DNA of 64,000 nucleotides from an uncultured Gammaproteobacteria bacterium (lineage in GTDB: Bacteria > Patescibacteriota > Patescibacteriia > Patescibacteriales > UBA12465), in assembly GCA_964473565.1 (NCBI GenBank), contig CAYYPI010000003.1:1811-65810 (forward strand), written 5' to 3'. Shown piece after piece: positions 1,792 through 39,050 of this stretch. The translations under genes were made by a program, and so were the position numbers. How positions within the stretch are numbered: position 1 is the first letter of the stretch; every line of letters starts with the position of its first letter. The notes under the pieces are model-generated. The model was not told the DNA's origin. It worked only from the letters and a program-made list of their open reading frames with translations, and searched no databases.

Positions 1792-3057
1792 ATGTTTAAA
1801 TTAGTTAAAAATAAATATTCAATATTTGGTTATTTTGCAATAATCTTAGCCGCCTTACTTTGGAGTATAGACGGTCTTTTTATTAGGCCAAGCTTTTATG
1901 TTTTGCCTGCAGCTTTAGTAGTATTTTGGGAGCACTTTTTAGGATTTATAGTCTTAAGTCCTTTTATTATTTTAAATTGGAAGAAGATAAAACGACTTAG
2001 TAGGAAGAATTGGGGTGCAGTTATTTGGGTGAGTTTGTTTGGTGGGGTTATTGGTACAATTATGATTACCAAGGCCTTCTTTTCCGCAATAGATGGTGAA
2101 ACAACCTTTGCTACTGTGGTTGTTCTACAAAAACTTCAACCAATTTTTGCTTTGTTTTTAGCTAGAATAATTTTAAGAGAGAAACTACCTAAGAATTTCT
2201 ATCTTTGGGCAACAGTAGCAATAGTGGCAAGTTATATTTTAGCATTTGCTAGTTATGGTTTTGATATTTTTTCAATAGACCTGTCTCAAAGTGCTGCTAT
2301 TTTTGCTATTTTAGCGGCTTTTGCATTTGGCTCATCTACTGTCTTTGGTAAACGGATTGCTAATCATCTTAACTTTAAAGCTTTAAGTGCACTGAGATTC
2401 GGCATCACTACAGTTTTGATATTAGTTTACCTTTTGTTTACTAACGGCCTAGGAATGAGTTCAGCTATTAGCTCAGTACAGTGGCATCTTTTAGCTCTGA
2501 TTGTTCTTAGTAGTGGTGCTCTGGCCATCTTTTTATTTTACTTTGGATTGCGCAGAGTTTCCGCTTCAACCACCACTATCTTAGAGCTTTTTTGGCCTTT
2601 TTCAGCTTTAATATTAGATTATATATTTAATAATAACTATTTAAATACAATTGAAATTGTGGCTGTGATAGTTTTAATTATTTCATTTTTCAAAGTTTCT
2701 AATTTAGATAAGAATAAGGTTAAATTTAACGCTAAAGTTATTAAAGGTGATGGCAGAGGGAGAAGAATTGGATACCCGACTGCTAATTTAGATAAGACTG
2801 ATTTAGATATTAGTCATGGTGTTTATGTGGTAAAAGCAAAATTAAAAGATAGCGTGTATGATGCTATTATGCATTTTGGCTATAAGGAGGTATTTAATGG
2901 ACCAGTTTCGCTAGAGATTTTAATTAAGGACTTTTCAGAAGATATTTATGGTAAGGAAATTACAGTTAAAGTTATTAAAAAGATTAGAGATGTAAAGAAG
3001 TTTGATAATATTGAGGATTTAAAGAAAAACATTTCTAAAGACTTGCAACATATTTAG
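1792..3057 (+). CDS. EamA/DMT-family 10-TM transporter fused to a C-terminal riboflavin kinase domain
   Basis: The N-terminal ~300 aa are two EamA-like 5-TM halves. The C-terminal ~115 aa carry RFK motifs GDGRGRRIGYPTANL, GVYVV and LEILIKDFSEDIYGKEI. I place the start at ATG 1792 rather than the track's TTG at 1759. Confidence 0.75.
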   Translation: MFKLVKNKYSIFGYFAIILAALLWSIDGLFIRPSFYVLPAALVVFWEHFLGFIVLSPFIILNWKKIKRLSRKNWGAVIWVSLFGGVIGTIMITKAFFSAIDGETTFATVVVLQKLQPIFALFLARIILREKLPKNFYLWATVAIVASYILAFASYGFDIFSIDLSQSAAIFAILAAFAFGSSTVFGKRIANHLNFKALSALRFGITTVLILVYLLFTNGLGMSSAISSVQWHLLALIVLSSGALAIFLFYFGLRRVSASTTTILELFWPFSALILDYIFNNNYLNTIEIVAVIVLIISFFKVSNLDKNKVKFNAKVIKGDGRGRRIGYPTANLDKTDLDISHGVYVVKAKLKDSVYDAIMHFGYKEVFNGPVSLEILIKDFSEDIYGKEITVKVIKKIRDVKKFDNIEDLKKNISKDLQHI

Positions 3058-22402: not shown

Positions 22403-22720
22403 ATGAGAGCAAAATGTTGTGAAAATAAAGAATTAACTAAAAAATATTTTGATTTAGCTAAATTTTTGCGAATTATTGGTGATAATAATCGTTTAAAAAT
22501 TTTATGTTTATTAAAAGATAATGATTTATATGTTGAACAGTTATCATTTAATTTAGATTTAGCTCAAAATTTAGTTTCTAGTCATTTAAAAGTAATGACA
22601 GATTTTGGTTTGTTGTTTGTAAGGCAAGAGGGAAAGAAAAATTATTATAGTATTAACAAGAAAGTGTTTAAAAAATACAATTCATTAATAAATAAATTTT
22701 TAAAAAATTATGAAAACTAA
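22403..22720 (+). CDS. ArsR/SmtB-family transcriptional regulator
   Basis: 105 aa. Winged HTH seen as LAKFLRIIGDNNRLKILCLLKDNDLYVEQLSFNLDLAQNLVSSHLKVM. Confidence 0.85.
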   Translation: MRAKCCENKELTKKYFDLAKFLRIIGDNNRLKILCLLKDNDLYVEQLSFNLDLAQNLVSSHLKVMTDFGLLFVRQEGKKNYYSINKKVFKKYNSLINKFLKNYEN

Positions 22721-22961
22721 AGTAAGTATAAAAGTACTAGGATCAGGCTGTCCTAGCTGTAAAAAATTATATGAAAGCACTAAAGACGCTATAGAAGCTT
22801 TAAACTTAGATTGTGATTTAGAGTATGTTACTAATATAAATGAAATAATTGCTTTGGGAATCATGAATACGCCAGCCTTAACTATTAATGATAAAATAAT
22901 ATTAAGCGGCAAGAATCCTGGTTCAGAAGAGTTAAAAGAGATAATTAAAGATGAAGTCTAA
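22710..22961 (+). CDS. small cytoplasmic thioredoxin-fold protein (redox-active disulfide protein 2 type), CPSC
   Basis: 83 aa. IKVLGSGCPSCKKL...TPALTINDK. No signal peptide. Overlaps arsR by 11 nt. Confidence 0.85.
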   Translation: MKTKVSIKVLGSGCPSCKKLYESTKDAIEALNLDCDLEYVTNINEIIALGIMNTPALTINDKIILSGKNPGSEELKEIIKDEV

Positions 22962-22982
22962 GAATGATAATGTAAATTTTAT

Positions 22983-24095
22983 ATGAATAAAGAAATAAAA
23001 ACTTTAATTATACTAGTAGCTGTTTTTTTGTTGTTTTATTTTGTACCTTTAGACAGTCCTAAAATTGGAGGGGCTATTTTACTTGGCTTAGCATTAGTGA
23101 ATGAGTATGCGCGTGAACATGTTTTAACTTGTTTAGTTCCAGCTTTTTTTATTGCTGGAGCAGTGGCAGTATTTGTTAAAAAAGATTTTGTCTTAAAGTA
23201 TTTAGGATCTCAGGTTAAAAAATATATCTCGTATTTGGTCGCATCGGTTTCTGGAATAGTATTAGCAGTTTGTTCTTGTACGGTTCTGCCTTTGTTTGCA
23301 GGGATATATAAAAGAGGAGCAGGATTAGGTCCAGCGATTACTTTTTTATTTTCAGGTCCAGCTATAAATATTGCTGCCATTTTTTTAACACTAGCTGTTT
23401 TAGGATTTGAGATTGGACTAGCTAGAATTATTGCCTCTATGCTTATGGCAATAGTAGTAGGTATTTCAATGCATTATATCTTTAAAGAGAAAAGTATAGG
23501 AGCAGACTTGCAAATAAATAAAAATGAAGCTAATAAATATAGCTCTAAACTTATTTTAGTTTTTACCTTAGCCATGGTAGCGATTCTAGTTGTTAATGGT
23601 TTAGCAATTGAACAAAATCTTAAATATGTACTAATGATTGTTTTAGCTCTTATCTCGGCCCTTATTGCTAACTTTAAATTTAAAAAAGAAAGTAATAAAG
23701 AGTGGCTTCAAGAAACATGGAAATTTAGCAAAATGTTATTACCACTTCTTTTTATTGGTGTTTTTATTGCTGGCTTCATTATGCCCTTTTTGCCAGAACA
23801 GTTAATTATAGATTTAGTGGGTAAAAATAATATTACTGGTAATTTAGTAGCTTCAGTTTTTGGTGCTTTTATGTATTTCTCCACTCTTACTGAAGTTCCT
23901 ATTTTACAAGCATTTTTAAGCAAAGGCATGAACGAGGGTCCAGCTTTAGCCTTACTTCTAGCAGGTCCATCACTTAGCCTTCCTAATTTATTAGTAATTA
24001 GAAAGGTATTAGGCAATAAAAAGACTGTGGCATATATGTTGCTTGTAATAATATTTTCTAGTATTTCTGGTTTAATTTTTGGGACTTTAATGTAG
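22983..24095 (+). CDS. ArsP/YraQ-type permease (DUF318 family)
   Basis: 370 aa, polytopic. Signature LAVCSCTVLPLFAGIYKRGAGLGPAITFLFSGPAINI. Confidence 0.8.
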   Translation: MNKEIKTLIILVAVFLLFYFVPLDSPKIGGAILLGLALVNEYAREHVLTCLVPAFFIAGAVAVFVKKDFVLKYLGSQVKKYISYLVASVSGIVLAVCSCTVLPLFAGIYKRGAGLGPAITFLFSGPAINIAAIFLTLAVLGFEIGLARIIASMLMAIVVGISMHYIFKEKSIGADLQINKNEANKYSSKLILVFTLAMVAILVVNGLAIEQNLKYVLMIVLALISALIANFKFKKESNKEWLQETWKFSKMLLPLLFIGVFIAGFIMPFLPEQLIIDLVGKNNITGNLVASVFGAFMYFSTLTEVPILQAFLSKGMNEGPALALLLAGPSLSLPNLLVIRKVLGNKKTVAYMLLVIIFSSISGLIFGTLM

Positions 24096-24099
24096 TAAT

Positions 24100-24765
24100 A
24101 TGTATAAAAATATTTCTAAAGAAAAGAAAAAAATACTTTTATTATCAATTTTAGTATTCTTTATAGTTTTAACTTTATCACTTTTATTTAACCTACATAA
24201 AGAAGGAAAAACAGAGAAGAAAATTAAAAACAATGAATTAAAGATAGCAGCTTGCCCTACTTATAGTGAACTTTTGTTATTAAAGCAAGATAATTGGTAT
24301 AATGTATTAAGTACTAGAAGCACAGCTGAGAGCTTAACTTTATTAAATAAAAATCTAGTTGATTATGTAGTATCTGGACGACCACCCAAACCCCTAGAGT
24401 CTGATTATAAATATTTTTATGTTAATAAAAGTGGCTACTCTTTTTTAGGGGACAGTTCTGTATCTTATTACCTTGATGACTTAAAGGATATGAAAATTTA
24501 TACTGATTTAAAGGATGTTGATGTTGAGTTTCTTGAAGGTGATTTAAAATTAAATAATATAATAAAGGTGGATGATGTATATAATCGAGATGATAATAGC
24601 TTAGCTATCACTACTTGGGAGAATACTGATTATAGCAAAGATAGTATTGTCCATATTTATAATAAAAACAATAATCGTTATGAACTTTCTAGAACACCAA
24701 TTATATATTGCAAAAATTGTGATCAAGAGGTTATAAATTTATTAATTAAAACATTAAATAATTAA
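24100..24765 (+). CDS. signal-anchored extracytoplasmic protein of unknown function
   Basis: 221 aa with an N-terminal TM (ILLLSILVFFIVLTLSLLF). The ectodomain has IAACPTYSELL and a C-terminal CKNC pair. It starts 4 nt after the permease gene. Confidence 0.45.
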   Translation: MYKNISKEKKKILLLSILVFFIVLTLSLLFNLHKEGKTEKKIKNNELKIAACPTYSELLLLKQDNWYNVLSTRSTAESLTLLNKNLVDYVVSGRPPKPLESDYKYFYVNKSGYSFLGDSSVSYYLDDLKDMKIYTDLKDVDVEFLEGDLKLNNIIKVDDVYNRDDNSLAITTWENTDYSKDSIVHIYNKNNNRYELSRTPIIYCKNCDQEVINLLIKTLNN

Positions 24766-24771
24766 AACAAT

Positions 24772-26193
24772 ATGAAAAAAAGTTTTTTTGGCAAGAAAAA
24801 AATTCTATTAGCTATTTTTGTGCTATTGTTTTCATTTTTTTCTTTTAATATAGATATAAACAATAATTCTGCTCTTGCAGATAGCAATGAAGATAATTTA
24901 AATAATAATCATGAACTTTGTCTACATTTTTTCTATAAACCAGATTGCTCACAATGTCAGCATGTTAGCTCTTTCTTGGAGACAATAGAAAAAGAGCGAA
25001 ATGTAGAGATTGCTACTTACAATATTCAAGAGGATGAGAATAAAGGTCTATATAACTCTTTTAAATATAGATATGGTTTAATTAGTAGTGCTTACCCAGT
25101 TATATTTATTGGTGATAATTATTTAATGGGAGATAAAACTATTGTAAATAATTTAGAAAAAGAAATAGAGCGTTGTCAAAAAAAGGATTGCCCCTGTGCT
25201 TTAGCTAAAGTAAACTCAAATACAGCTTCAGTGCCTCAATCTAATGAAATTACTGCTGAAGAGGCAGAGGTTCTAACACTACCACTTGTAGGTGAAGTTA
25301 ATTTTTCATCAATGCCCATATATGTTACCACTGCTATTATCGCTTTTGTTGATGGTTTTAATCCTTGTTCTTTATGGCTTATTACTTTTTTGATAGGAAT
25401 TGTAATATATAGTCGTTCAAGGAAGAAAATAATGATTGTAGGAGGGACCTTTTTATTAGTTACCGGTGGTGTTTACGCTCTTTTCATGGCCGGACTTCTG
25501 AATGTTTTTTCATATGTTGGATACTTAGCTTGGATTCAGGTTGCAGTGGCTATAGTGGCAGCTGTATTTGCGCTGGTGAATATTAAAGATTATTTTTGGT
25601 ATAAAAAAGGTATATCATTTACTATTTCAGATAAATATAAGCCAAAGATTTTTAAAAACATGAGAGGTATCATGAAAGGGGATAAATCTCTTTGGCAAAT
25701 GGTATTGGGAACAACAATTTTAGCCTTAGGTGTGGTTTTAGTTGAGCTTCCTTGTACTGCAGGCTTTCCGGTGGTCTGGACTAATATTCTGGCTCAAGCA
25801 GGAATTGAAGGTGGTCTCTTTTATTCTCTCTTAGGTTTATATATGCTAATCTACTTATTAGACGAAGTAGCAGTTCTTTTGATAGCAGCTTGGACTATGA
25901 GAGCTAGTCGTTTTGAAGAGAAACATGGTAGAATGTTAAAGTTAATTGGTGGTATGGTTATGTTGTCACTTGCTATAGTGATGATTGTAGATCCTGATTT
26001 AATGCATGATATTAGTGGTACGGTTATAATTTTTGCAGGAGCTATCCTCTTATCCTTTGTATTAATGTATATACATCGCCATATTTTACCTAAATTTGGA
26101 ATTAGAATTGGTAGTGAAAAAGAGATAGTGGAAGAAAAAGAAACTAGTGACAATGAAACTGAAATTAAACAAAAAAATGATAAAATAGAATAA
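24772..26193 (+). CDS. exported thioredoxin/glutaredoxin-like CSQC domain fused to a DsbD/CcdA-type membrane thiol-disulfide transporter
   Basis: Signal-anchor, then a Trx-like domain (FFYKPDCSQCQHV). The 6-7 TM core has FNPCSLW in the first TM and ELPCTAGFP in the fourth, which is the Pro-Cys in TM1/TM4 arrangement of CcdA/DsbD. Confidence 0.65.
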   Translation: MKKSFFGKKKILLAIFVLLFSFFSFNIDINNNSALADSNEDNLNNNHELCLHFFYKPDCSQCQHVSSFLETIEKERNVEIATYNIQEDENKGLYNSFKYRYGLISSAYPVIFIGDNYLMGDKTIVNNLEKEIERCQKKDCPCALAKVNSNTASVPQSNEITAEEAEVLTLPLVGEVNFSSMPIYVTTAIIAFVDGFNPCSLWLITFLIGIVIYSRSRKKIMIVGGTFLLVTGGVYALFMAGLLNVFSYVGYLAWIQVAVAIVAAVFALVNIKDYFWYKKGISFTISDKYKPKIFKNMRGIMKGDKSLWQMVLGTTILALGVVLVELPCTAGFPVVWTNILAQAGIEGGLFYSLLGLYMLIYLLDEVAVLLIAAWTMRASRFEEKHGRMLKLIGGMVMLSLAIVMIVDPDLMHDISGTVIIFAGAILLSFVLMYIHRHILPKFGIRIGSEKEIVEEKETSDNETEIKQKNDKIE

Positions 26194-26217: not shown

Positions 26218-26595
26218 ATGAATAAAGATTTACCAACAAAACTATTATATAATAATGATTATTCCTGGGTTAAAATTGAAGGAGATCTTGCTACCCTAGG
26301 AATTATTAAACCTGCTTGTGATAAAATAGAAGAATTTGTTTTTGTGAAGTTACCAGAAAAAGGGCAAAAGATAAAAAAAGGAGAAGTCTATGTATCTTTA
26401 GAGGCAATTAAGTGGAGTGGGCATCTTTCTAGTCCTTTTACAGGAGAGATTGTAGAGGTGAATGAAGATGTTTTTGATGAACCTACTATTATCAATGAAG
26501 ATCCCTATGGCAAAGGTTGGATAGCTAAAATTAAATTGGAAAACGAAAAAGAAAAAGAGGATCTTATCACAGCTGAAGAGGTCAAAGATCTTTAG
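26218..26595 (+). CDS. gcvH: glycine-cleavage H-protein homolog (lipoyl carrier)
   Basis: 125 aa, alignable by eye along the whole GcvH length. YSWVKIEGDLATLGI; the lipoyl-Lys context LEAIKWSG corresponds to ESVKAAS; also EDPYGKGWIAKIKL. Confidence 0.85.
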   Translation: MNKDLPTKLLYNNDYSWVKIEGDLATLGIIKPACDKIEEFVFVKLPEKGQKIKKGEVYVSLEAIKWSGHLSSPFTGEIVEVNEDVFDEPTIINEDPYGKGWIAKIKLENEKEKEDLITAEEVKDL

Positions 26596-26648
26596 CAGAT
26601 AGATAATAATAAATAATAAAAAAAATTAACAAATTAAATAATTTATAT

Positions 26649-27116
26649 ATGATTAAAAAAAATATATTTATAACAAGCTTCTTAATTATCATTATAGGAT
26701 TAACTCTTTCTGCCTGCTCTTCAACAGAAAACACTGAGAATGAAGAGGGCGCTTTAAAGGGTACCAAGGTTGAATATTTAGGTGAAAAGCCTGAAAACCC
26801 TAAAGTTAGTTTATATTTTTTTTGGGGAGATGGTTGCCCTAATTGTGCTACTGAAGAGCTGTTTTTAGAAGAGATGAAAGAAAAGTATCCTGATTTAGAG
26901 ATTAAGATGTATGAAACTTGGAAAAATACAAATAATGCTAAAGCTCTACAAACGATGGCTAAGGCATATGGTACCACCGCTAGAGGCGTTCCTATGACCT
27001 TTATAGGTGATTTTGAACCTTGGGTAGGATTTTCTTCTAGAATGGAATCTGATTTAGAGGAAAAAATTGAATATTGCTTTGAAAACGAATGCGTTGATCC
27101 TGAAAGTAAATTATAG
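26649..27116 (+). CDS. thioredoxin-fold lipoprotein, CPNC active site
   Basis: Lipobox LTLSAC after a hydrophobic signal. Trx motif LYFFWGDGCPNCATEE. Confidence 0.75.
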   Translation: MIKKNIFITSFLIIIIGLTLSACSSTENTENEEGALKGTKVEYLGEKPENPKVSLYFFWGDGCPNCATEELFLEEMKEKYPDLEIKMYETWKNTNNAKALQTMAKAYGTTARGVPMTFIGDFEPWVGFSSRMESDLEEKIEYCFENECVDPESKL

Positions 27117-27144
27117 TTAATAATTATAATATAATAATTAAAAC

Positions 27145-28518
27145 ATGAGAGTCGTTATTATTGGCGGAGGAACTGCCGGCAGTGAGCTTGCCTGGCGCTT
27201 ACGCAGAGAAGATAAAGACATAGAAATAATTATTTTAGAAAAGGGAAAGTATAGACAATACTCCCCTTGTGCTTTACCTTATTTTTTAAGTGGAAAAATT
27301 AAGCAAGCAGATGATATTGTTTTGTTCTCTAGTGATTATTATAATTATAACAATATTGATTTGAGATTAAAGACGGAATTAAAAAAAGTGAATACAAAAA
27401 CAAAAGAGCTTCAATATTTAGATAAAGAAAATAATAAAGAAGAAAAACTAAGCTATGATTATCTAGTCTTAGCTACTGGTTTAAAACTTAAAACACCCTC
27501 TATTTTAGGTTTAAAAGATCAAGATTTCTATACTTTAAAAAGTCTTGATGATGCTAAAAAAATAAAAAAACTTGTTAAAAAGGGTGATAAAGCTTTAATT
27601 ATTGGGGCTGGCTATGTTGGTGTAGAATTAGCGGATGCACTTAGTGCTATGGGACTAAATATACACTTAGTGGAAAGTCAGCAAAACGTTTTACCAAGTA
27701 CTTTAGATAAAAAGATGGCGTCTGTAGTTGAGGAAGAATTGGAATCATCTAAAATAAAACTTCTTCTTAATTCTAAAATAGAGAAAGTAACTAATAAGCA
27801 GGTATTTCTTAAAGATGCATCCCTAGAAAGCAAAAAAATAAATTACGACCACCTTTTTCTTGCTTGCGGTTTAAGCGCTGATTTATCTTTAGCAAAGAAA
27901 ATAGGTTTGAAGGTTGATAAAGGTGTTATTGTTAATGACGCCTTAGAAACTTCAAAGAAAAATATTTACGCTATTGGAGACTTAGTTGAATCTGTTAATT
28001 TAGTTGACAATAAAAAGACTTTAAGTCAGCTGGCTACCACGGCTGTAGCGCAAGCAAGGGTTTTAAGTCAAAATATTTTAGCAAATAAAGATAAAAAGAA
28101 AAGCTCAAAATCTAAAAGAAATAAAGTTTTGAGTTCTAGTGTCTCTAAATTTAAGGATTTAATTTTTGCTAGTTGTGGAGTAACAAAAACTTATTGCCAA
28201 AAGAATAATATTGAAACTGTAGAGGCTTTTTACAAAGGAAAAGATAAGGCGCATTATTATCCAGATGCTAATGACATCTTTGTTTATTTGATTTCTAATC
28301 TTAAAGGAAGAGTTATAGGTTGCCAAATTGCTGGTTATAATGAAGTTGTGGGACGTTTAAATATGATTTCTCTAGCCATAGAACAAGGTTTAAAATTAAA
28401 AGACTTAATTGATGTAGAAACCTGTTACAACCCAGCTCTATCTCCTATTTTTGACCCCATAACTGTAGCTGCAGAGGTTTGTTTAAAAAAATTAAAAGCA
28501 AAAAATGCTAAAACCTAA
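27145..28518 (+). CDS. FAD-dependent pyridine nucleotide-disulfide oxidoreductase, single-Cys CoA-disulfide reductase / NADH oxidase type
   Basis: FAD site VVIIGGGTAGSE. Redox Cys context YSPCALPYF. NAD(P)H site LIIGAGYVGVELA. Also IYAIGD. Confidence 0.8.
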   Translation: MRVVIIGGGTAGSELAWRLRREDKDIEIIILEKGKYRQYSPCALPYFLSGKIKQADDIVLFSSDYYNYNNIDLRLKTELKKVNTKTKELQYLDKENNKEEKLSYDYLVLATGLKLKTPSILGLKDQDFYTLKSLDDAKKIKKLVKKGDKALIIGAGYVGVELADALSAMGLNIHLVESQQNVLPSTLDKKMASVVEEELESSKIKLLLNSKIEKVTNKQVFLKDASLESKKINYDHLFLACGLSADLSLAKKIGLKVDKGVIVNDALETSKKNIYAIGDLVESVNLVDNKKTLSQLATTAVAQARVLSQNILANKDKKKSSKSKRNKVLSSSVSKFKDLIFASCGVTKTYCQKNNIETVEAFYKGKDKAHYYPDANDIFVYLISNLKGRVIGCQIAGYNEVVGRLNMISLAIEQGLKLKDLIDVETCYNPALSPIFDPITVAAEVCLKKLKAKNAKT

Positions 28519-29359
28519 GTATTTGAAAATAAAAGATTTTAATCGTAAAAAATATTTAGAAACTCTAAATCTTAGTAAAAAATATAAGTTAAATACTGTT
28601 TGTTTGTCTGCTAATTGTCCTAATCGCTATCACTGTTTTTCAAGTAGTACAGCAACCTTTATGATTTTAGGTGAGGCTTGTACTAGAAATTGTCATTATT
28701 GCAATATAGGAAATACTAAGCCAAATAAAGTTGATGAGCAGGAGCCTAAAAACCTAGCCTTGGCCATTAAAAAGCTTAATCTAGATTATGCTGTTATTAC
28801 CAGCGTTAGCAGAGATGATCTTAAAGATGGTGGCAGTAGTCATTTTATTAATTGTATTAATGAGATTAGAAAAATTAATGATTCTAAGATTGAGGTTTTA
28901 ATTCCTGATTTTAAGGGTAATAAAGTTGCCTTAGAAAAACTCATTGAAGCTAAACCGGAAATTATCAATCACAACATTGAAACAGTCAAAGAATTATTTC
29001 CTAAATTAAGACCACAAGGTAATTTTGATAGATCATTAATTCTTTTAAAAACTATTAAAAATATTAATTCAGATATTATTACAAAATCTGGACTAATGGT
29101 GGGTTTGGGAGAAACTAAAGCGCAAATACTTAAAACCCTAAAAGACTTAAGAGATGTAAATGTTGATATATTGAGCATTGGGCAATATTTAGCACCAAGT
29201 AATAAACATGCAAAACTAGAAAAGTATTATACTGAAGCAGAGTTTTTAGAACTTAAAAAAATAGCTAAAGAATTTGGTTTTAAAGAGGTTATTTCTGGCC
29301 CTATGGTTAGAAGTTCGTATAAAGCGAAAGAAGTTTATGAAAAAGTGGCGAATACTTAA
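28505..29359 (+). CDS. lipA: lipoyl synthase
   Basis: Auxiliary cluster motif C-x4-C-x5-C (CLSANCPNRYHC), radical-SAM CTRNCHYC, and C-terminal RSSY. Confidence 0.95.
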   Translation: MLKPKYLKIKDFNRKKYLETLNLSKKYKLNTVCLSANCPNRYHCFSSSTATFMILGEACTRNCHYCNIGNTKPNKVDEQEPKNLALAIKKLNLDYAVITSVSRDDLKDGGSSHFINCINEIRKINDSKIEVLIPDFKGNKVALEKLIEAKPEIINHNIETVKELFPKLRPQGNFDRSLILLKTIKNINSDIITKSGLMVGLGETKAQILKTLKDLRDVNVDILSIGQYLAPSNKHAKLEKYYTEAEFLELKKIAKEFGFKEVISGPMVRSSYKAKEVYEKVANT

Positions 29360-30125
29360 AACAGTAAAAGAAAGCGCAGCTAAACAAATGGCTATTGATG
29401 AGGCTATTCTTATTGCTAGGATAAACAACCTGGTTCCTAATACTTTAAGGTTTTTTACTTGGAATCCTGGTGCCATTACTGTTGGTTTTTTTCAGGATTT
29501 AGAACAAGAAATAGATTTAAAAAGAGCTCAAGATTTAAAAGTTGATGTTGTTAGGCGCTATAGTGGTGGGGGAGCGGTATTTCATCATGATGAATTAACA
29601 TATTCACTTGTAGTTGCAGAAAAAGACCTTTCTTTAAATGTTTTGGATTCCTATAAATATTTATGCCAAGGTGTGATTAATGGATTAAAGATTTTGGGTA
29701 TTGAAGCTAAGTTTCAACCCATTAATGATATATTGGTAAATGGCAAAAAAATATCTGGTAATGCACAAACCAGAAAAGAAGGAGTGATACTACAACATGG
29801 GACCATACTTTTATCTGTTGATGTTGAAAAGATGTTTTCTATTCTTAAGGTAAGTAATGAAAAAATGAAAGGTAAGCTTATTGCTAATGTTAAAGAGGCT
29901 GTTACCTCAATTAAAAGTGAATTACAGTCTCCAAGTCTAGATTTAAGATATTTAGAAAAAGTTTTTAAACAAGGATTCGCACAGTCTCTAAATGTTGACT
30001 TTGATGAGGCTGTTTTAAGTAAAGAAGAAAAAGAAATTGCTCAAGAGCTTGAAAGAGACAAATATTTAAGTAAAGAATGGAATTATAATCAAAAGTATAA
30101 GAATAGATTTTATGAAAAAAATTGA
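29337..30125 (+). CDS. lplA: lipoate-protein ligase catalytic domain (LplA/LipM family)
   Basis: RRYSGGGAVFHH and the catalytic-Lys context GKKISGNAQ. I start it at ATG 29337 (MKKWRIL), overlapping lipA by 23 nt. The track start at 29274 is rejected. Confidence 0.85.
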   Translation: MKKWRILKTVKESAAKQMAIDEAILIARINNLVPNTLRFFTWNPGAITVGFFQDLEQEIDLKRAQDLKVDVVRRYSGGGAVFHHDELTYSLVVAEKDLSLNVLDSYKYLCQGVINGLKILGIEAKFQPINDILVNGKKISGNAQTRKEGVILQHGTILLSVDVEKMFSILKVSNEKMKGKLIANVKEAVTSIKSELQSPSLDLRYLEKVFKQGFAQSLNVDFDEAVLSKEEKEIAQELERDKYLSKEWNYNQKYKNRFYEKN

Positions 30126-30378
30126 TTACAAAGTAGAGGGAGGAAAGTTTTTAAGAATGCAAATTGATATTAAAGATGGTGTAATTAAGGATATAAAAAT
30201 AAGAGGAGATTTTTTTGTTTATCCTGAAACTGCAATTTTCCAAATAGAAGATTTTTTAAAAGGAAAAAAACTTGAAAGCTTTGCTAGTTTGCTTAGCTCA
30301 TATATAAAAGAGAAAAATATTAAAATAATTGGTTTTTCAGTAGCTGATTTAGAAAAATCTTTGCAAGTAGAAAATTAA
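30112..30378 (+). CDS. stand-alone lipoate-protein ligase C-terminal domain (LplB-like accessory subunit)
   Basis: 88 aa. KVEGGKFLRMQIDIKDGVIKDIKIRGDFFVYPE resembles the LplA C-terminal domain. Overlaps lplA by 14 nt. Confidence 0.7.
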   Translation: MKKIDYKVEGGKFLRMQIDIKDGVIKDIKIRGDFFVYPETAIFQIEDFLKGKKLESFASLLSSYIKEKNIKIIGFSVADLEKSLQVEN

Positions 30379-35416: not shown

Positions 35417-35986
35417 TTATTGTCTAATACTAATATCGTAATTAACTTGTTCAATTTTTTTTAAGTGTCCTCTAGCTTGATCGTATTTTGTTCTTAAGTA
35501 ACCCGTAAAATCAAATTCAGTTAATGAGGCTAAGAGTTCAGAAGCATCTTCACTAGCCCTTGTTACCTCTTTAGTGTTATGCTTAGCTGCCTGGTTAGTG
35601 CAAAACCTTGCCATCTCTCCTATTAAATCAGATATAGCACCTAAATATGATTCATGACTTAATTTTAGATTTTTCAATTTTTCAATTTTATGTTTAGTTA
35701 GCCATTGCCAAAAAAGATGTGCTTCTAAAAATTCTTCAATAGCTGCTTTATATGAACCTTCTTGCTCTAAGCGAGCAGCACCTAAATTTTTTTGTAATTT
35801 TTTGATATCCTCCTCTAATTTTTTTAAATCATTTTCAGCCTTATTGTAATCTTGTCTATGTAAAGAAAAAATAATTCTTTTTGAGTCATGTAAAATAGGA
35901 TTACTAGATTTAATTATTTTACTCCTTTCTTTATTTTTTTCGACATGATCTTTTTTAAGTTTTTGAACAAATGATTTTTTTATCAT
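35417..35986 (-). CDS. translin/TRAX-family protein
   Basis: The C-terminus LRTKYDQARGHLKKIEQVNYDISIR aligns by eye with human translin LRKRYDGLKYDVKKVEEVVYDLSIR. The central YLGAISDLIGEMAR resembles the TRAX DLTGEL motif. Confidence 0.75.
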   Translation of the reverse strand: MIKKSFVQKLKKDHVEKNKERSKIIKSSNPILHDSKRIIFSLHRQDYNKAENDLKKLEEDIKKLQKNLGAARLEQEGSYKAAIEEFLEAHLFWQWLTKHKIEKLKNLKLSHESYLGAISDLIGEMARFCTNQAAKHNTKEVTRASEDASELLASLTEFDFTGYLRTKYDQARGHLKKIEQVNYDISIRQ

Positions 35987-36020
35987 ATATAAGTAATTAT
36001 TTATTTTTTAATTGAAGTTA

Positions 36021-39000
36021 TTATCTTAGCGACCTAAAAGCTTCATCTAAAGTGGTGTAACCTTTTAGTGCCTTAATAACACCGTCTTGAAGTATAGTCA
36101 CTGTACCTGCTTTTACAGCTAATTCTTCTATTTCATAATCAATAACTTCTTTACTTTGAATGGCTTTTCTAATTTCACTAGAAACTTCCATAACTTCATA
36201 AATACCGATTCTTCCTTTGTAGCCTAAACTATTACATTGTGGACAACCTTTACCTTGATAAAATTTAAGTTCACTTGGTATTTCAACTTTAGCTTTGTCG
36301 CTAATAGAATCTAAAACTTCTCTAACTTCATTTAATTGTTCTTCACTGATTTTAATTTCTTCTTTACAATGAGGACAAATCCTTCTAGCTAATCTTTGTC
36401 CAATTGAAGCCTCTAGAGCATTAGCAAGGAGTTGTCTAGGTACATTTAGACCACTTAAACGACTAACTGCGCTAGCTGCGCTATTAGCATGTAAAGTAGA
36501 GAGAACTAAATGACCAGTGGTAGCAGCTTCAATAGCTATGTTAGCTGTTTCTTCATCTCTAATTTCTCCCACCATCATGATGTTAGGGTTTTGGCGAAGT
36601 AAAGATTTCATAGCTGAAGCAAAAGTATAGCCTTGATCAGCATCAATTTGTGTTTGCATGAGTCCAGGCATTTGGTATTCAATAGGATCTTCAACAGTAA
36701 TAATTTTAACATCTGGACTGTTTAATTTATTTAGAGCAGAGTATAAAGTAGTAGTTTTACCAGAACCGGTAGGCCCAGTAGTAATTATAATACCCTTAGT
36801 TTTAGAAATTGACCTTGTTAAAGGTTCTAGGCTGTATTTTTCCATGCCCAATTCTTTAAGGTCAAGACTTTGAGCTTGAGAGGCTAGAAGACGAATTACA
36901 ATAGTTTCACCATAACCTCCTGAGATGATAGAAACACGACTGTCAGCTCGTTTAGTGGGCATTTTAATGCTAAAACGACCATCAATTGTCGCTTTCTTAA
37001 CATTAGTAGCTACACCAATAAGAATTTTAACCTTTGATAACAGTGGTAAATAATGATCTTTAGCTAAATCAACCACATCATGCAATACGCCATCTATTCT
37101 AAAACGTACTTTCACGCTAGTTTCAGTTGGTTCGATATGAATATCTCCAGCATCAGCCTGTATAGCCATAGCAACAATTATTTTTAGTACTTTTTGTACA
37201 GATACATTTTTAAAACTAGTATTTATATTAACTAAATCTTGACTTAGCTCTTTAGCTTCATCAAGTTCTTCTTGATTAATTTTTATACCTCTACCAATAG
37301 TTTGGCTAATAACAATATCATATAATTCATCCACGTAGTCGGTATTACCAATTACTCTATAGATCTCTTCTAAACTAGTTTTACCTTCTATAGCTTTTAA
37401 AACTCCATCTTGAAGCATGGTAATCATGCCATTTTCAATAGCTTGTTGCAAAATTTTAAAAGAAGCAGCTTCTTTTATAACTAAGTCTTTAATTTTGTCA
37501 TCTAGCGTGAATATTTCATAAATACCAACTCTTCCTTTATAGCCTATAAAGTTACACTTATCACAACCTTCTGGGTTGGGTTTAAATAATTTAGGTATTT
37601 CAGTAGGAACGTCAAGATTTGATTTTGGTGAGATTACAGCAAGTATTTTCTTAAGTTTTTCATTCTCCTCTTCAGCTGGTTGATATTCTGTTTTACATTC
37701 ATTACACAATTTTCTAACTAATCTTTGACCAATAACAGCGTTAATTGAGGGAACTAAGAAATATGGTTTTACACCCATGTCTATTAAACGAGGTATAACA
37801 CCTGAGGCATCATTAGTGTGCAAGGTGGATAAAACTAAGTGACCAGTTAAACTAGCTTGTACGGAAATTTCAGCTGTATCAAGATCGCGAATTTCTCCTA
37901 CCATAACAATATCTGGATCTTGCCTCAAGACTGAACGTAGTCCATTAGCAAAAGTATATTCTTTTTTTCTGTTAATTTGACTTTGATTAATTCCTTCTAA
38001 TTGATACTCAATCGGGTCTTCTAAGGTGATAATTTTTGTTCCTGGTTGATTTAATTTATTTAAAATAGAGTATAAAGTAGTGGTTTTACCTGAACCTGTA
38101 GGACCAGTTGTTAGTATTAGACCGTTAGGTTTTTTAATTTCTTCTTTTAATATGTTATAGGCTTCATCTCTAAGACCTAACTCCTCAAATCCTAATTGAA
38201 TAGATTCAGATCTTAAAATTCTCATAACCACACTTTCTCCAAAGGCTGTAGGTAAAAAGGAAGCACGCACATCAATTTGTTCATTAGGTAGATAAATTTT
38301 AAAACGACCATCTTGTGGTGCGCCTTCAATATTAATTTTTACACCTGCTAAAAGTTTTAAACGGGAAATAATTTTTTTCCATTGTTCCTTTTTAATAGTA
38401 GCAGCCTCTTGCAAAACACCATCAATTCTTAGTCTCACAACTACTCCTTTGTCCTCAGCTTCAATATGTACATCACTGACATCAACCTTAATAGCAGTAG
38501 CTAAAATAAGAGTAACAATATCAGTAATATTCACTTGATTTATTTTTTCAGCAAGCTTTTTGTAATCAGTGATTTCATTTTTAAACTTTTCTAAATCTTT
38601 AGCTGGAATTTCCACTCCACTATCATACTTTTTTATTTTAGGAATAGCTTTATATACTTCTAAGGCATATTCAAAACTATGTCGAGATATTAAGTATATT
38701 CTACTGTTAGTAAAATATTTAGCATCAAGTTCTTTTTGTATTTCTTTAGCAGCTTTAGCTTCTGGATCAGTGGTGGCTATACGAATGTTTTCTCCATCAT
38801 AATAAAAGCAAATAACTTCTTTTTCTTTAGCTACTTTTTCATCTATTAAAACAATTGCATCAGGGCTTATAGGAAAAGCAAATAGATTAACATACTTTAG
38901 GCCAGCTTCTTCAGCTTTAGCCATAGTTTGTTCTTCCATTTCTTTTATTTTAATTTCTTCTTGTTTTTTTGCTAATTTTCCTTGAATAGTATCTTCGTCT

Positions 39001-39050
39001 TGAACATCATCAGAATTAATCAAGTTATTAATGGAGTTATAGGTAGACAT
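36021..39050 (-). CDS. tandem-duplicated type II/IV secretion ATPase (two complete PilB/GspE modules in one polypeptide)
   Basis: 1009 aa. Module 1 (aa 1-568) has a GspE N-terminal domain, Walker A GPTGSGKT at aa 316, IVMVGEIRD, TGHLVLSTLH, and CNEC..CDKC. Module 2 (aa 569-1009) has Walker A at aa 759, IMMVGEIRD, TGHLVLSTLH, and CPHC..CPQC. Confidence 0.9.
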   Translation of the reverse strand: MSTYNSINNLINSDDVQDEDTIQGKLAKKQEEIKIKEMEEQTMAKAEEAGLKYVNLFAFPISPDAIVLIDEKVAKEKEVICFYYDGENIRIATTDPEAKAAKEIQKELDAKYFTNSRIYLISRHSFEYALEVYKAIPKIKKYDSGVEIPAKDLEKFKNEITDYKKLAEKINQVNITDIVTLILATAIKVDVSDVHIEAEDKGVVVRLRIDGVLQEAATIKKEQWKKIISRLKLLAGVKINIEGAPQDGRFKIYLPNEQIDVRASFLPTAFGESVVMRILRSESIQLGFEELGLRDEAYNILKEEIKKPNGLILTTGPTGSGKTTTLYSILNKLNQPGTKIITLEDPIEYQLEGINQSQINRKKEYTFANGLRSVLRQDPDIVMVGEIRDLDTAEISVQASLTGHLVLSTLHTNDASGVIPRLIDMGVKPYFLVPSINAVIGQRLVRKLCNECKTEYQPAEEENEKLKKILAVISPKSNLDVPTEIPKLFKPNPEGCDKCNFIGYKGRVGIYEIFTLDDKIKDLVIKEAASFKILQQAIENGMITMLQDGVLKAIEGKTSLEEIYRVIGNTDYVDELYDIVISQTIGRGIKINQEELDEAKELSQDLVNINTSFKNVSVQKVLKIIVAMAIQADAGDIHIEPTETSVKVRFRIDGVLHDVVDLAKDHYLPLLSKVKILIGVATNVKKATIDGRFSIKMPTKRADSRVSIISGGYGETIVIRLLASQAQSLDLKELGMEKYSLEPLTRSISKTKGIIITTGPTGSGKTTTLYSALNKLNSPDVKIITVEDPIEYQMPGLMQTQIDADQGYTFASAMKSLLRQNPNIMMVGEIRDEETANIAIEAATTGHLVLSTLHANSAASAVSRLSGLNVPRQLLANALEASIGQRLARRICPHCKEEIKISEEQLNEVREVLDSISDKAKVEIPSELKFYQGKGCPQCNSLGYKGRIGIYEVMEVSSEIRKAIQSKEVIDYEIEELAVKAGTVTILQDGVIKALKGYTTLDEAFRSLR

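Follow-up and report, generated by a model that had tools for sequence, protein, structure and literature searches.

A DMT permease fused to a riboflavin kinase: a candidate riboflavin salvage protein in bacteria of the CPR and in DPANN archaea

We describe a gene whose product joins a membrane permease of the DMT/EamA type to a complete riboflavin kinase in a single polypeptide. The gene lies on the forward strand of a 64,000-nucleotide stretch of contig CAYYPI010000003.1 (assembly GCA_964473565.1, positions 1,811 to 65,810; this whole stretch is referred to below as the window), which comes from an uncultured bacterium placed by GTDB in the Patescibacteriota. Judged by comparative genomics, the fusion is quite probably a bifunctional riboflavin salvage protein, which would combine uptake of the vitamin with its trapping as flavin mononucleotide (FMN).

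A large part of microbial diversity consists of bacteria of the candidate phyla radiation (CPR) and archaea of the DPANN group; most of their biosynthesis is missing, and few of their nutrient importers are known. In the survey of Nelson and Stegen (2015, PMC4508563), every Parcubacteria genome examined was reported to have no riboflavin biosynthesis, no ribK/ribL/ribF, no FMN riboswitches and no riboflavin transporter that could be recognised. The same organisms keep the flavin adenine dinucleotide (FAD) enzymes MurB and TrxB, and FAD synthase was listed as unexpectedly missing (PMC4508563). The fusion family offers concrete candidates for the first two of the missing steps, the riboflavin transporter and the kinase, and for the third there is a candidate in the RibL-like gene that adjoins the fusion in some relatives. 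The proposal would explain the supply of flavin cofactors in vitamin-dependent CPR bacteria such as Parcubacteria with tiny genomes. A preliminary description of the window, made from its letters without database searches, had suggested that a fusion of this kind would suit an organism that does not synthesize riboflavin. This agrees with the published survey (PMC4508563), and a Pfam scan of the open reading frames in the 64-kb window detected no rib genes and no FMN adenylyltransferase.

The permease domain runs into the kinase domain in one open frame (1792-3057, + strand), with neither a stop codon nor a frame change inside, as the preliminary description had read it. Two in-frame starts are possible, TTG at 1759 and ATG at 1792. 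The ATG is favored because homologues begin at the same position, which gives a protein of 421 amino acids (aa); a putative TATAAT box, read straight from the sequence, is located at 1777-1782, 9 bases 5' of this codon. An identical protein is present in a Parcubacteria metagenome-assembled genome (MAG), GCA_046543045.1 (NCBI), in which the window falls within a contig of 68.8 kb. The database search that had been proposed for the PF00892+PF01687 architecture found it in all of the 120 best matches (of at least 949 database clusters); these matches measure 405-451 aa and share 58-100% identity with the query. The only names that the databases give them are 'riboflavin kinase' and 'EamA family transporter'. 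The literature searched contained no account of an EamA-riboflavin kinase fusion, in line with the preliminary description, which was not aware of one being characterized, and to our knowledge this would be the first covalent fusion of a vitamin permease with a kinase.

Relatives of the permease-kinase family were identified in 326 GTDB species genomes by a motif scan that covered one genome per species and had the family motif QKLQPIFAL as its pattern; the complete Falkowbacteria chromosome CP066698.1 is among them. We fetched 80 of these loci and checked them for the fusion. Both domains were encoded in one open frame in 72, and at two further loci (L070 and L073) the fusion was interrupted only by in-frame TGA codons, as predicted by genetic code 25 (SR1/Gracilibacteria-type), so that the intact fusion was present at 74/80 loci. 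One locus was broken by a contig end, and five were truly unfused, with a frame that stops just past the tenth transmembrane (TM) helix. The family ranges over CPR bacteria, DPANN archaea, Calditrichota, Melioribacteraceae and Marinimicrobia-labelled MAGs. On this comparative evidence, the fusion is under selection. The window itself derives from a MAG, and a frameshift joining two genes had been named in the preliminary description as a way in which the fusion could be spurious; no support for such an assembly or frameshift artefact was found. Hundreds of independent assemblies, drawn from several sources, share the same architecture, with a conserved frame and linker length, and the separate kinase genes described below sit upstream of the permease gene, not downstream. 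We rejected the artefact reading, whose probability we regard as negligible: it is ruled out by the database clusters, the GTDB loci and the conservation of the frame.

The C-terminal part of the protein is a complete riboflavin kinase, which had been predicted to begin near nt 2716 and was found to do so. Pfam Flavokinase (PF01687) matches aa 309-420 over model positions 4-119 of 124 (E 8.7e-32; 110.4 bits versus a cutoff of 19.6), and phmmer matched this domain to the riboflavin kinase (RFK) modules 3op1 and 1mrz and to human RFK (1nb0). Foldseek searches with the C-terminal part of the structural model returned the RFK modules 3op1, 1mrz, 1q9s and 5a88, with 1q9s, 5a88 and 1mrz at a root-mean-square deviation of 2.0-2.7; these matches and the AlphaFold2 strands within residues 310-399 indicate the six-stranded beta-barrel fold of RFKs. 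The catalytic residues are in place: T330, A331 and E375 are invariant among 36 homologues, and N332 is kept in more than 90% of them. The kinase motifs quoted in the preliminary description, and a LEILIKDF motif at nt 2911-2934, were all located where expected, and the domain is predicted to be an active kinase. FAD formation would require a separate enzyme, since the fusion protein has no match to PF06574 (FAD_syn, FMN adenylyltransferase) in the Pfam scan, and NCBIfam RibF models match the C-terminal kinase half only (model positions ~185-300). Both model sets thus agree with the earlier statement that a FAD synthetase domain is absent. A search for the N-terminal domain of Escherichia coli RibF likewise gave nothing, at a threshold as lax as E=10, in the window and in 1.25 Mb of related loci. 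The protein was therefore rejected as a bifunctional RibF: the FMN adenylyltransferase module was tested for and is absent.

The N-terminal part is a ten-helix EamA-type permease, as had been proposed. Pfam identifies two EamA (PF00892) repeats (E 1.2e-28; 100.6 bits versus a cutoff of 28.2), and ten hydrophobic segments in the hydropathy profile coincide with the ten TM helices of an AlphaFold2 model built from 36 homologues (pLDDT 87.5, pTM 0.87). Foldseek matched this part to solved DMT transporters, i.e., the triose-phosphate translocator 5y78, LicB 7paf and YddG 5i20, with TM-scores of 0.66-0.79 on the target. The preliminary description had asked whether an even number of helices places the kinase inside the cell. 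The mean number of lysine and arginine residues over the 36 homologues is 18.4 on the predicted cytoplasmic side (the N-terminus, loops 2-3, 4-5, 6-7 and 8-9, and the linker) versus 2.7 on the outer side (the other five loops). Because the helix count is even and the positive-inside bias strong, an N-in/C-in topology with the kinase domain in the cytoplasm is a clear prediction. In the model, a helix at residues 286-304 is followed by a strand at 310-317, which leaves a linker of about 6-10 residues between the two domains.

The membrane domain contains many invariant polar residues (D27, R32, E47, H48, Q113, K114, Q116, E130, K187, R188, N191, H192, R202, E265, D276 and N280). The signatures WSxDG, QKLQPxFA, FGSSTVF and YYxGL are common to family members with and without a kinase domain, which suggests that the fused and unfused branches have one common substrate site.

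Evidence that this substrate is riboflavin comes from the genomic associations of the permease. Among 1.84 billion cluster representatives, a phmmer search with the permease domain yielded only 1099 matches at E<=1e-3, 96 of them at E<=1e-30, so that this is a narrow DMT subfamily. Its fused members (409-455 aa) and its unfused ones (~300-320 aa) are intermixed from 58% to 34% identity, and in a neighbor-joining tree PF01687-fused members occupy at least seven places beside unfused sisters. This pattern suggests that the fusion arose more than once; the tree is rough and has no support values, which makes the count of fusion events rough as well. In one member (P0137), the same permease is fused to a different kinase, the archaeal CTP-dependent riboflavin kinase PF01982 (E 3e-29), and three further DMT-PF01982 fusions were found at 47-49% identity. 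A gene for the archaeal RNase P protein Rpp14 on the P0137 contig marks that contig as archaeal; on the P0285 contig no archaeal marker of this kind was found.

Unfused members are associated with riboflavin kinases as neighboring genes. One of them (P0302) overlaps by 4 nt an upstream gene for a 212-aa protein of the RbkR type, composed of a winged-helix domain and PF01982. We examined 80 metagenomic loci of the unfused branch and counted the 67 that had at least 400 nt of upstream sequence. A riboflavin kinase gene was located within 2 kb directly upstream on the same strand in 14 of the 67: 11 of these are of the RbkR/RibK type, often overlapping the start of the DMT gene, and 3 are stand-alone 124-aa PF01687 kinases. 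By chance, one specific single-copy gene would be expected as the upstream neighbor of a given gene in roughly one case per thousand. In these operons the kinase gene comes before the permease gene, while the kinase is C-terminal in every fusion; therefore, the fusions are not simple read-through products of that gene order. The source databases gave 20 unfused representatives the name 'DMT family transporter' or none.

A further association concerns the last step of FAD formation. Immediately upstream of the fusion gene, about 8 of 81 CPR loci encode a PF01467 nucleotidyltransferase of 127-155 aa with a GTFDxLHxGH motif, and the archaeal locus L110 contains the same kind of enzyme in an overlapping operon of nucleotidyltransferase, RbkR and DMT genes. 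The nucleotidyltransferase has 837 homologues, which are named 'FAD synthetase' (JGI) or 'FAD synthase' (NCBI) in Patescibacteria, Parcubacteria and Woesearchaeota. Its best match in the PDB is 3glv (E 3e-28), which we take to be the Thermoplasma homologue of RibL; among NCBIfam models, only a generic cytidylyltransferase model scored above cutoff. The protein is probably an FMN adenylyltransferase of the archaeal, RibL-like type.

Four kinds of linkage thus connect this family of permeases to the phosphorylation of riboflavin and the formation of FAD, and they involve two kinase families and both domains of life. The preliminary description had proposed a riboflavin importer by analogy with RibN and ImpX, which we likewise take to belong to the DMT/EamA superfamily; the proposal now has comparative support from the PF01982 fusions, the RbkR/RibK/RFK operons and the adjacent RibL-like genes. 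From these associations we infer that riboflavin is the substrate and that it would move inward.

Several observations weigh against this assignment. The substrate is assigned by genomic association alone, and 53 of the 67 unfused loci have no kinase neighbor. In one relative, P0202 (574 aa, on a single Logan contig), the fusion partner of the DMT subfamily is a HAD-family hydrolase and not a kinase, and a phosphatase partner is possible there. No FMN riboswitch (RF00050) was detected in the 64-kb window or in six loci of unfused relatives; riboswitches are not expected in archaea. The analysis covered 64 kb of this genome, so that the absence of rib genes from all of it and the presence of an FMN adenylyltransferase in it are suppositions. 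Many characterized DMT proteins are exporters. Finally, a block of genes for a PfkB-type kinase, AhcY and MetK precedes the permease gene at about 14-19 of 81 CPR loci, which could hint at another class of substrate.

The permease might accordingly carry some other metabolite, such as a nucleoside or a compound of the S-adenosylmethionine (SAM) cycle, with the kinase as a co-expressed housekeeping enzyme or a flavin-sensing gate. DMT substrates are very diverse, and the PfkB-AhcY-MetK block, the absence of a kinase neighbor from most unfused members and the lack of a detected riboswitch would fit this explanation. It fails to explain the repeated linkage to riboflavin kinases of two families, in fusions and operons and in bacteria and archaea, or the adjacent genes for a RibL-like FAD synthase, and invariant catalytic residues are ill-suited to a mere sensor; we consider it unlikely. 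The block itself is found at loci L023, L033, L078, L082 and about 12 more CPR loci, with proteins of ~500, 154, 226 and ~640 aa encoded downstream of the permease gene. It flanks fused (L023) and unfused (L078, L082) genes at apparently the same genomic position. We rejected this SAM-cycle synteny as a clue to the substrate, as it appears to represent a lineage-specific gene order that occurs with or without the kinase domain or the RibL-like gene. With the same block around fused and unfused versions, it is also evident that a single locus can gain or lose the kinase domain.

Riboflavin salvage by the fusion may be pictured as follows. The DMT permease would admit external riboflavin across the membrane, by uniport or coupled to protons, and the tethered kinase, hung from TM10 at the cytoplasmic face, would phosphorylate it to FMN with ATP. 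Since FMN could not exit, back-flux would be blocked and an inward gradient maintained. A separate archaeal-type RibL-like enzyme, encoded elsewhere in the genome (not in the window), would adenylylate FMN to FAD. The short basic linker would hold the kinase near the cytoplasmic mouth of the permease. The recurrence of the fusion argues that proximity itself is advantageous.

The same genomic linkage shows a tie to flavins and not which flavin crosses the membrane. The permease could import FMN, FAD, a riboflavin analogue or a degradation product, and the kinase could re-phosphorylate riboflavin that is freed inside; CPR cells attached to a host could meet FMN or FAD. With FMN import, however, a tethered kinase would be needless, and a tether of 6-10 residues at the cytoplasmic mouth fits action on the incoming molecule. 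In addition, the characterized bacterial flavin importers reviewed in PMC4418817 all take riboflavin. Import of another flavin is therefore improbable in our estimate. The opposite direction of transport must also be weighed: many DMT members export their substrates, YddG is among the closest folds, and the domain could secrete FMN made by the kinase for use as an electron shuttle or in cross-feeding. Parcubacteria without riboflavin synthesis (PMC4508563) would have nothing to export, and the linkage to RbkR, a regulator of genes for riboflavin biosynthesis and uptake, and to FAD synthase speaks for the acquisition of cofactors. We regard export as very improbable and retain inward transport of riboflavin.

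Among known riboflavin importers, RibN (Proteobacteria) and ImpX (Fusobacteria, Firmicutes and Proteobacteria) were confirmed through their ability to complement an E. coli auxotroph (PMC4418817). RibN is restricted to alpha- and gamma-Proteobacteria, with an FMN riboswitch in the alpha group, and ImpX is monocistronic with an FMN riboswitch upstream (PMC4418817). Like these proteins, the present family consists of single-component permeases of the secondary type, with a DMT fold. RibN and ImpX occur as separate proteins whose genes usually follow an FMN riboswitch, and their hosts mostly make riboflavin as well, whereas the present family is fused or operon-linked to kinases, occurs in CPR bacteria, DPANN archaea and a few other phyla, and had no riboswitch detected. 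It may be related to RibN and ImpX or may be a separate DMT lineage; the differences named here are drawn from published descriptions of the two families. When PLSDB was searched with the FMN riboswitch of E. coli ribB, 262 matches were obtained, and the six inspected regulate ribB, ribH or an unannotated protein, with no DMT gene among them.

In its proposed logic, the fusion resembles the Pnu systems, in which a facilitator is combined with a trapping kinase (PnuX/RibM with RibF/RibC for riboflavin, PnuC with NadR for nicotinamide riboside). In both cases an uncharged vitamin would enter by facilitated transport, and phosphorylation would trap it and pull uptake. The Pnu fold is different and the kinase is a separate polypeptide, whereas here the permease is of the DMT type and the kinase covalently tethered. 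The kinase itself is an ordinary PF01687 domain with PTAN and a catalytic Glu, like RibF/RibC and monofunctional RFKs, and the 124-aa stand-alone kinases beside unfused permeases are of this kind too. Unlike in RibF/RibC, the membrane permease takes the place of the N-terminal FMN adenylyltransferase. RbkR is also a riboflavin kinase fused to a partner in riboflavin homeostasis, a winged-helix regulator in archaea (PMC5397151), and RbkR-like genes stand directly upstream of unfused DMT members; it differs in having a CTP-dependent PF01982 kinase and in binding DNA. The published archaeal RbkR regulons include RibU and the MFS protein RibT as transporters, and no DMT protein (PMC5397151). Group translocation by the phosphotransferase system (PTS) is similar in that the substrate reaches the cytoplasm and ends as a phosphorylated compound there. 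The PTS has phosphoryl transfer as a mechanistic part of translocation, whereas for the fusion only proximity is shown, and coupling beyond trapping is speculative.

The repeated independent fusion to two riboflavin kinase families does raise the idea of a real physical coupling, in which riboflavin would be passed directly from the permease vestibule to the kinase site in a manner reminiscent of group translocation. Together with RibL, such a protein would complete a three-step salvage route and answer the puzzle of the missing FAD synthase in Parcubacteria. We put this forward as speculation and consider it rather doubtful. The novelty would lie in a DMT family of riboflavin importers, new or as yet unplaced, and in the covalent permease-kinase architecture. 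If the assignment is correct, a new family is added to the known riboflavin importers. As a marker of flavin dependence, the fusion gene may assist the design of media or co-cultures for lineages not yet cultivated, and if channelling is true, the protein would provide a compact module for engineered vitamin uptake. The features discussed are listed in Table 1.

Table 1. Positions of the fusion gene, its domains and motifs, and a likely flavin consumer, numbered from the first letter of the window
Feature	Position	Strand	Evidence
Whole gene, DMT permease-riboflavin kinase fusion, 421 aa (stop codon included)	1792..3057	+	Open reading frame list, sequence, Pfam EamA + Flavokinase
DMT/EamA permease domain, aa 1-305, ten TM helices, predicted N-in/C-in	1792..2706	+	EamA repeats, hydropathy, AlphaFold2, Foldseek, Lys+Arg counts
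TM1 motif WSIDG (W24, S25, D27, G28 invariant), candidate substrate-site cluster	1861..1875	+	Fused alignment; W and D invariant in unfused alignment too
TM2 motif FWEHFLGF (E47, H48 invariant in fused family)	1924..1947	+	Alignments
TM4 motif QKLQPIFAL (Q113, K114, Q116, P117 invariant in fused and unfused branches)	2128..2154	+	Alignments; search pattern behind the 326 genome loci
TM6 motif FGSSTVFGKR, family signature	2326..2355	+	Fused alignment, genome scan
Short basic linker SNLDKN, aa 303-308, TM10 to first kinase strand	2698..2715	+	AlphaFold2 secondary structure; linker mean Lys+Arg 2.97
Riboflavin kinase domain PF01687, aa 309-421, predicted cytoplasmic	2716..3054	+	Pfam, phmmer, Foldseek
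Gly-rich flap GDGRGR (G319, G323 invariant)	2746..2763	+	Alignments
PTAN motif; T330, N332 = human RFK T34, N36 (Mg-ATP/flavin site)	2776..2787	+	Alignment to 1nb0
E375 codon; aligns with catalytic base (human RFK E86; C. ammoniagenes E268)	2914..2916	+	Alignment; invariant in 36 homologues
Pyr_redox_2 FAD-type oxidoreductase (Lpd-like), likely flavin consumer	27145..28518	+	Pfam E 3e-58 + dimerisation domain

Some loci of relatives had features of their own. The fusion gene of the SR1-labelled locus L073 (2944-4197) contains 10 in-frame TGA codons and that of L070 (1709-2962) contains 3, with no other stops. In L073, CGA or CGG occurs at the family-conserved Trp positions W24, W139, W231 and W268, and conserved Arg residues are encoded by AGA, AGG or CGT. 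This codon pattern fits a reassignment of CGA/CGG to Trp that has been reported for a clade of Absconditabacterales. Loci L044 (10001-12546) and L055 (10001-12539) each encode two complete fusions in tandem. Their permease domains share ~60% and ~45-47% identity with the query, as might be expected of paralogues that have diverged in specificity or kinetics. On a Woesearchaeota-labelled contig that carries P0090 (L177, 1-21275), the fusion gene is located inside an array of about 14 tandem genes. The array products are mostly ~385-530 aa long with a PF00391 PEP-utilizers domain only, and two genes for TrmB-type regulators lie alongside. Outside the CPR, Neomarinimicrobiota-labelled MAGs encode unfused permeases (L080, 9959-10945; L081, 2851-3837) that are ~56% identical to the membrane domain of the CPR fusion and adjoin genes for DnaA and a cupin; these suggest that the permease moved horizontally between distant phyla.

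The window has a G+C content of 30% and is 92% coding. The neighbors of the fusion gene, which encode an amino-acid permease, an acylphosphatase, a DUF2177 protein and a DUF192 protein, are uninformative. As a FAD-type oxidoreductase is encoded in the window (Table 1), flavin is likely needed in this organism too. Its gene is part of a cluster at 26218-30378 that consists of genes for GcvH (26218-26595), a 155-aa protein (26649-27116), the Lpd-like protein, a radical-SAM LipA-like protein (28505-29359) and an LplA/B protein with its C-terminal domain (29274-30378). This cluster is an orphan module of lipoylation, H-protein and E3 functions in a genome of minimal metabolism. A preceding cluster (22403-26193) encodes an ArsR-type helix-turn-helix protein, a thioredoxin of small size and an ArsP-type permease (22983-24095); next come a 221-aa protein without a family and a 473-aa protein with only a weak glutaredoxin-like match. 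The first part of this cluster is found again on a separate Logan contig (L002). On the minus strand at 35417-39050, a Translin-family protein (35417-35986), which is unusual in bacteria, is encoded beside a 1008-aa ATPase (36021-39050) with two T2SSE (PilB-like) regions.

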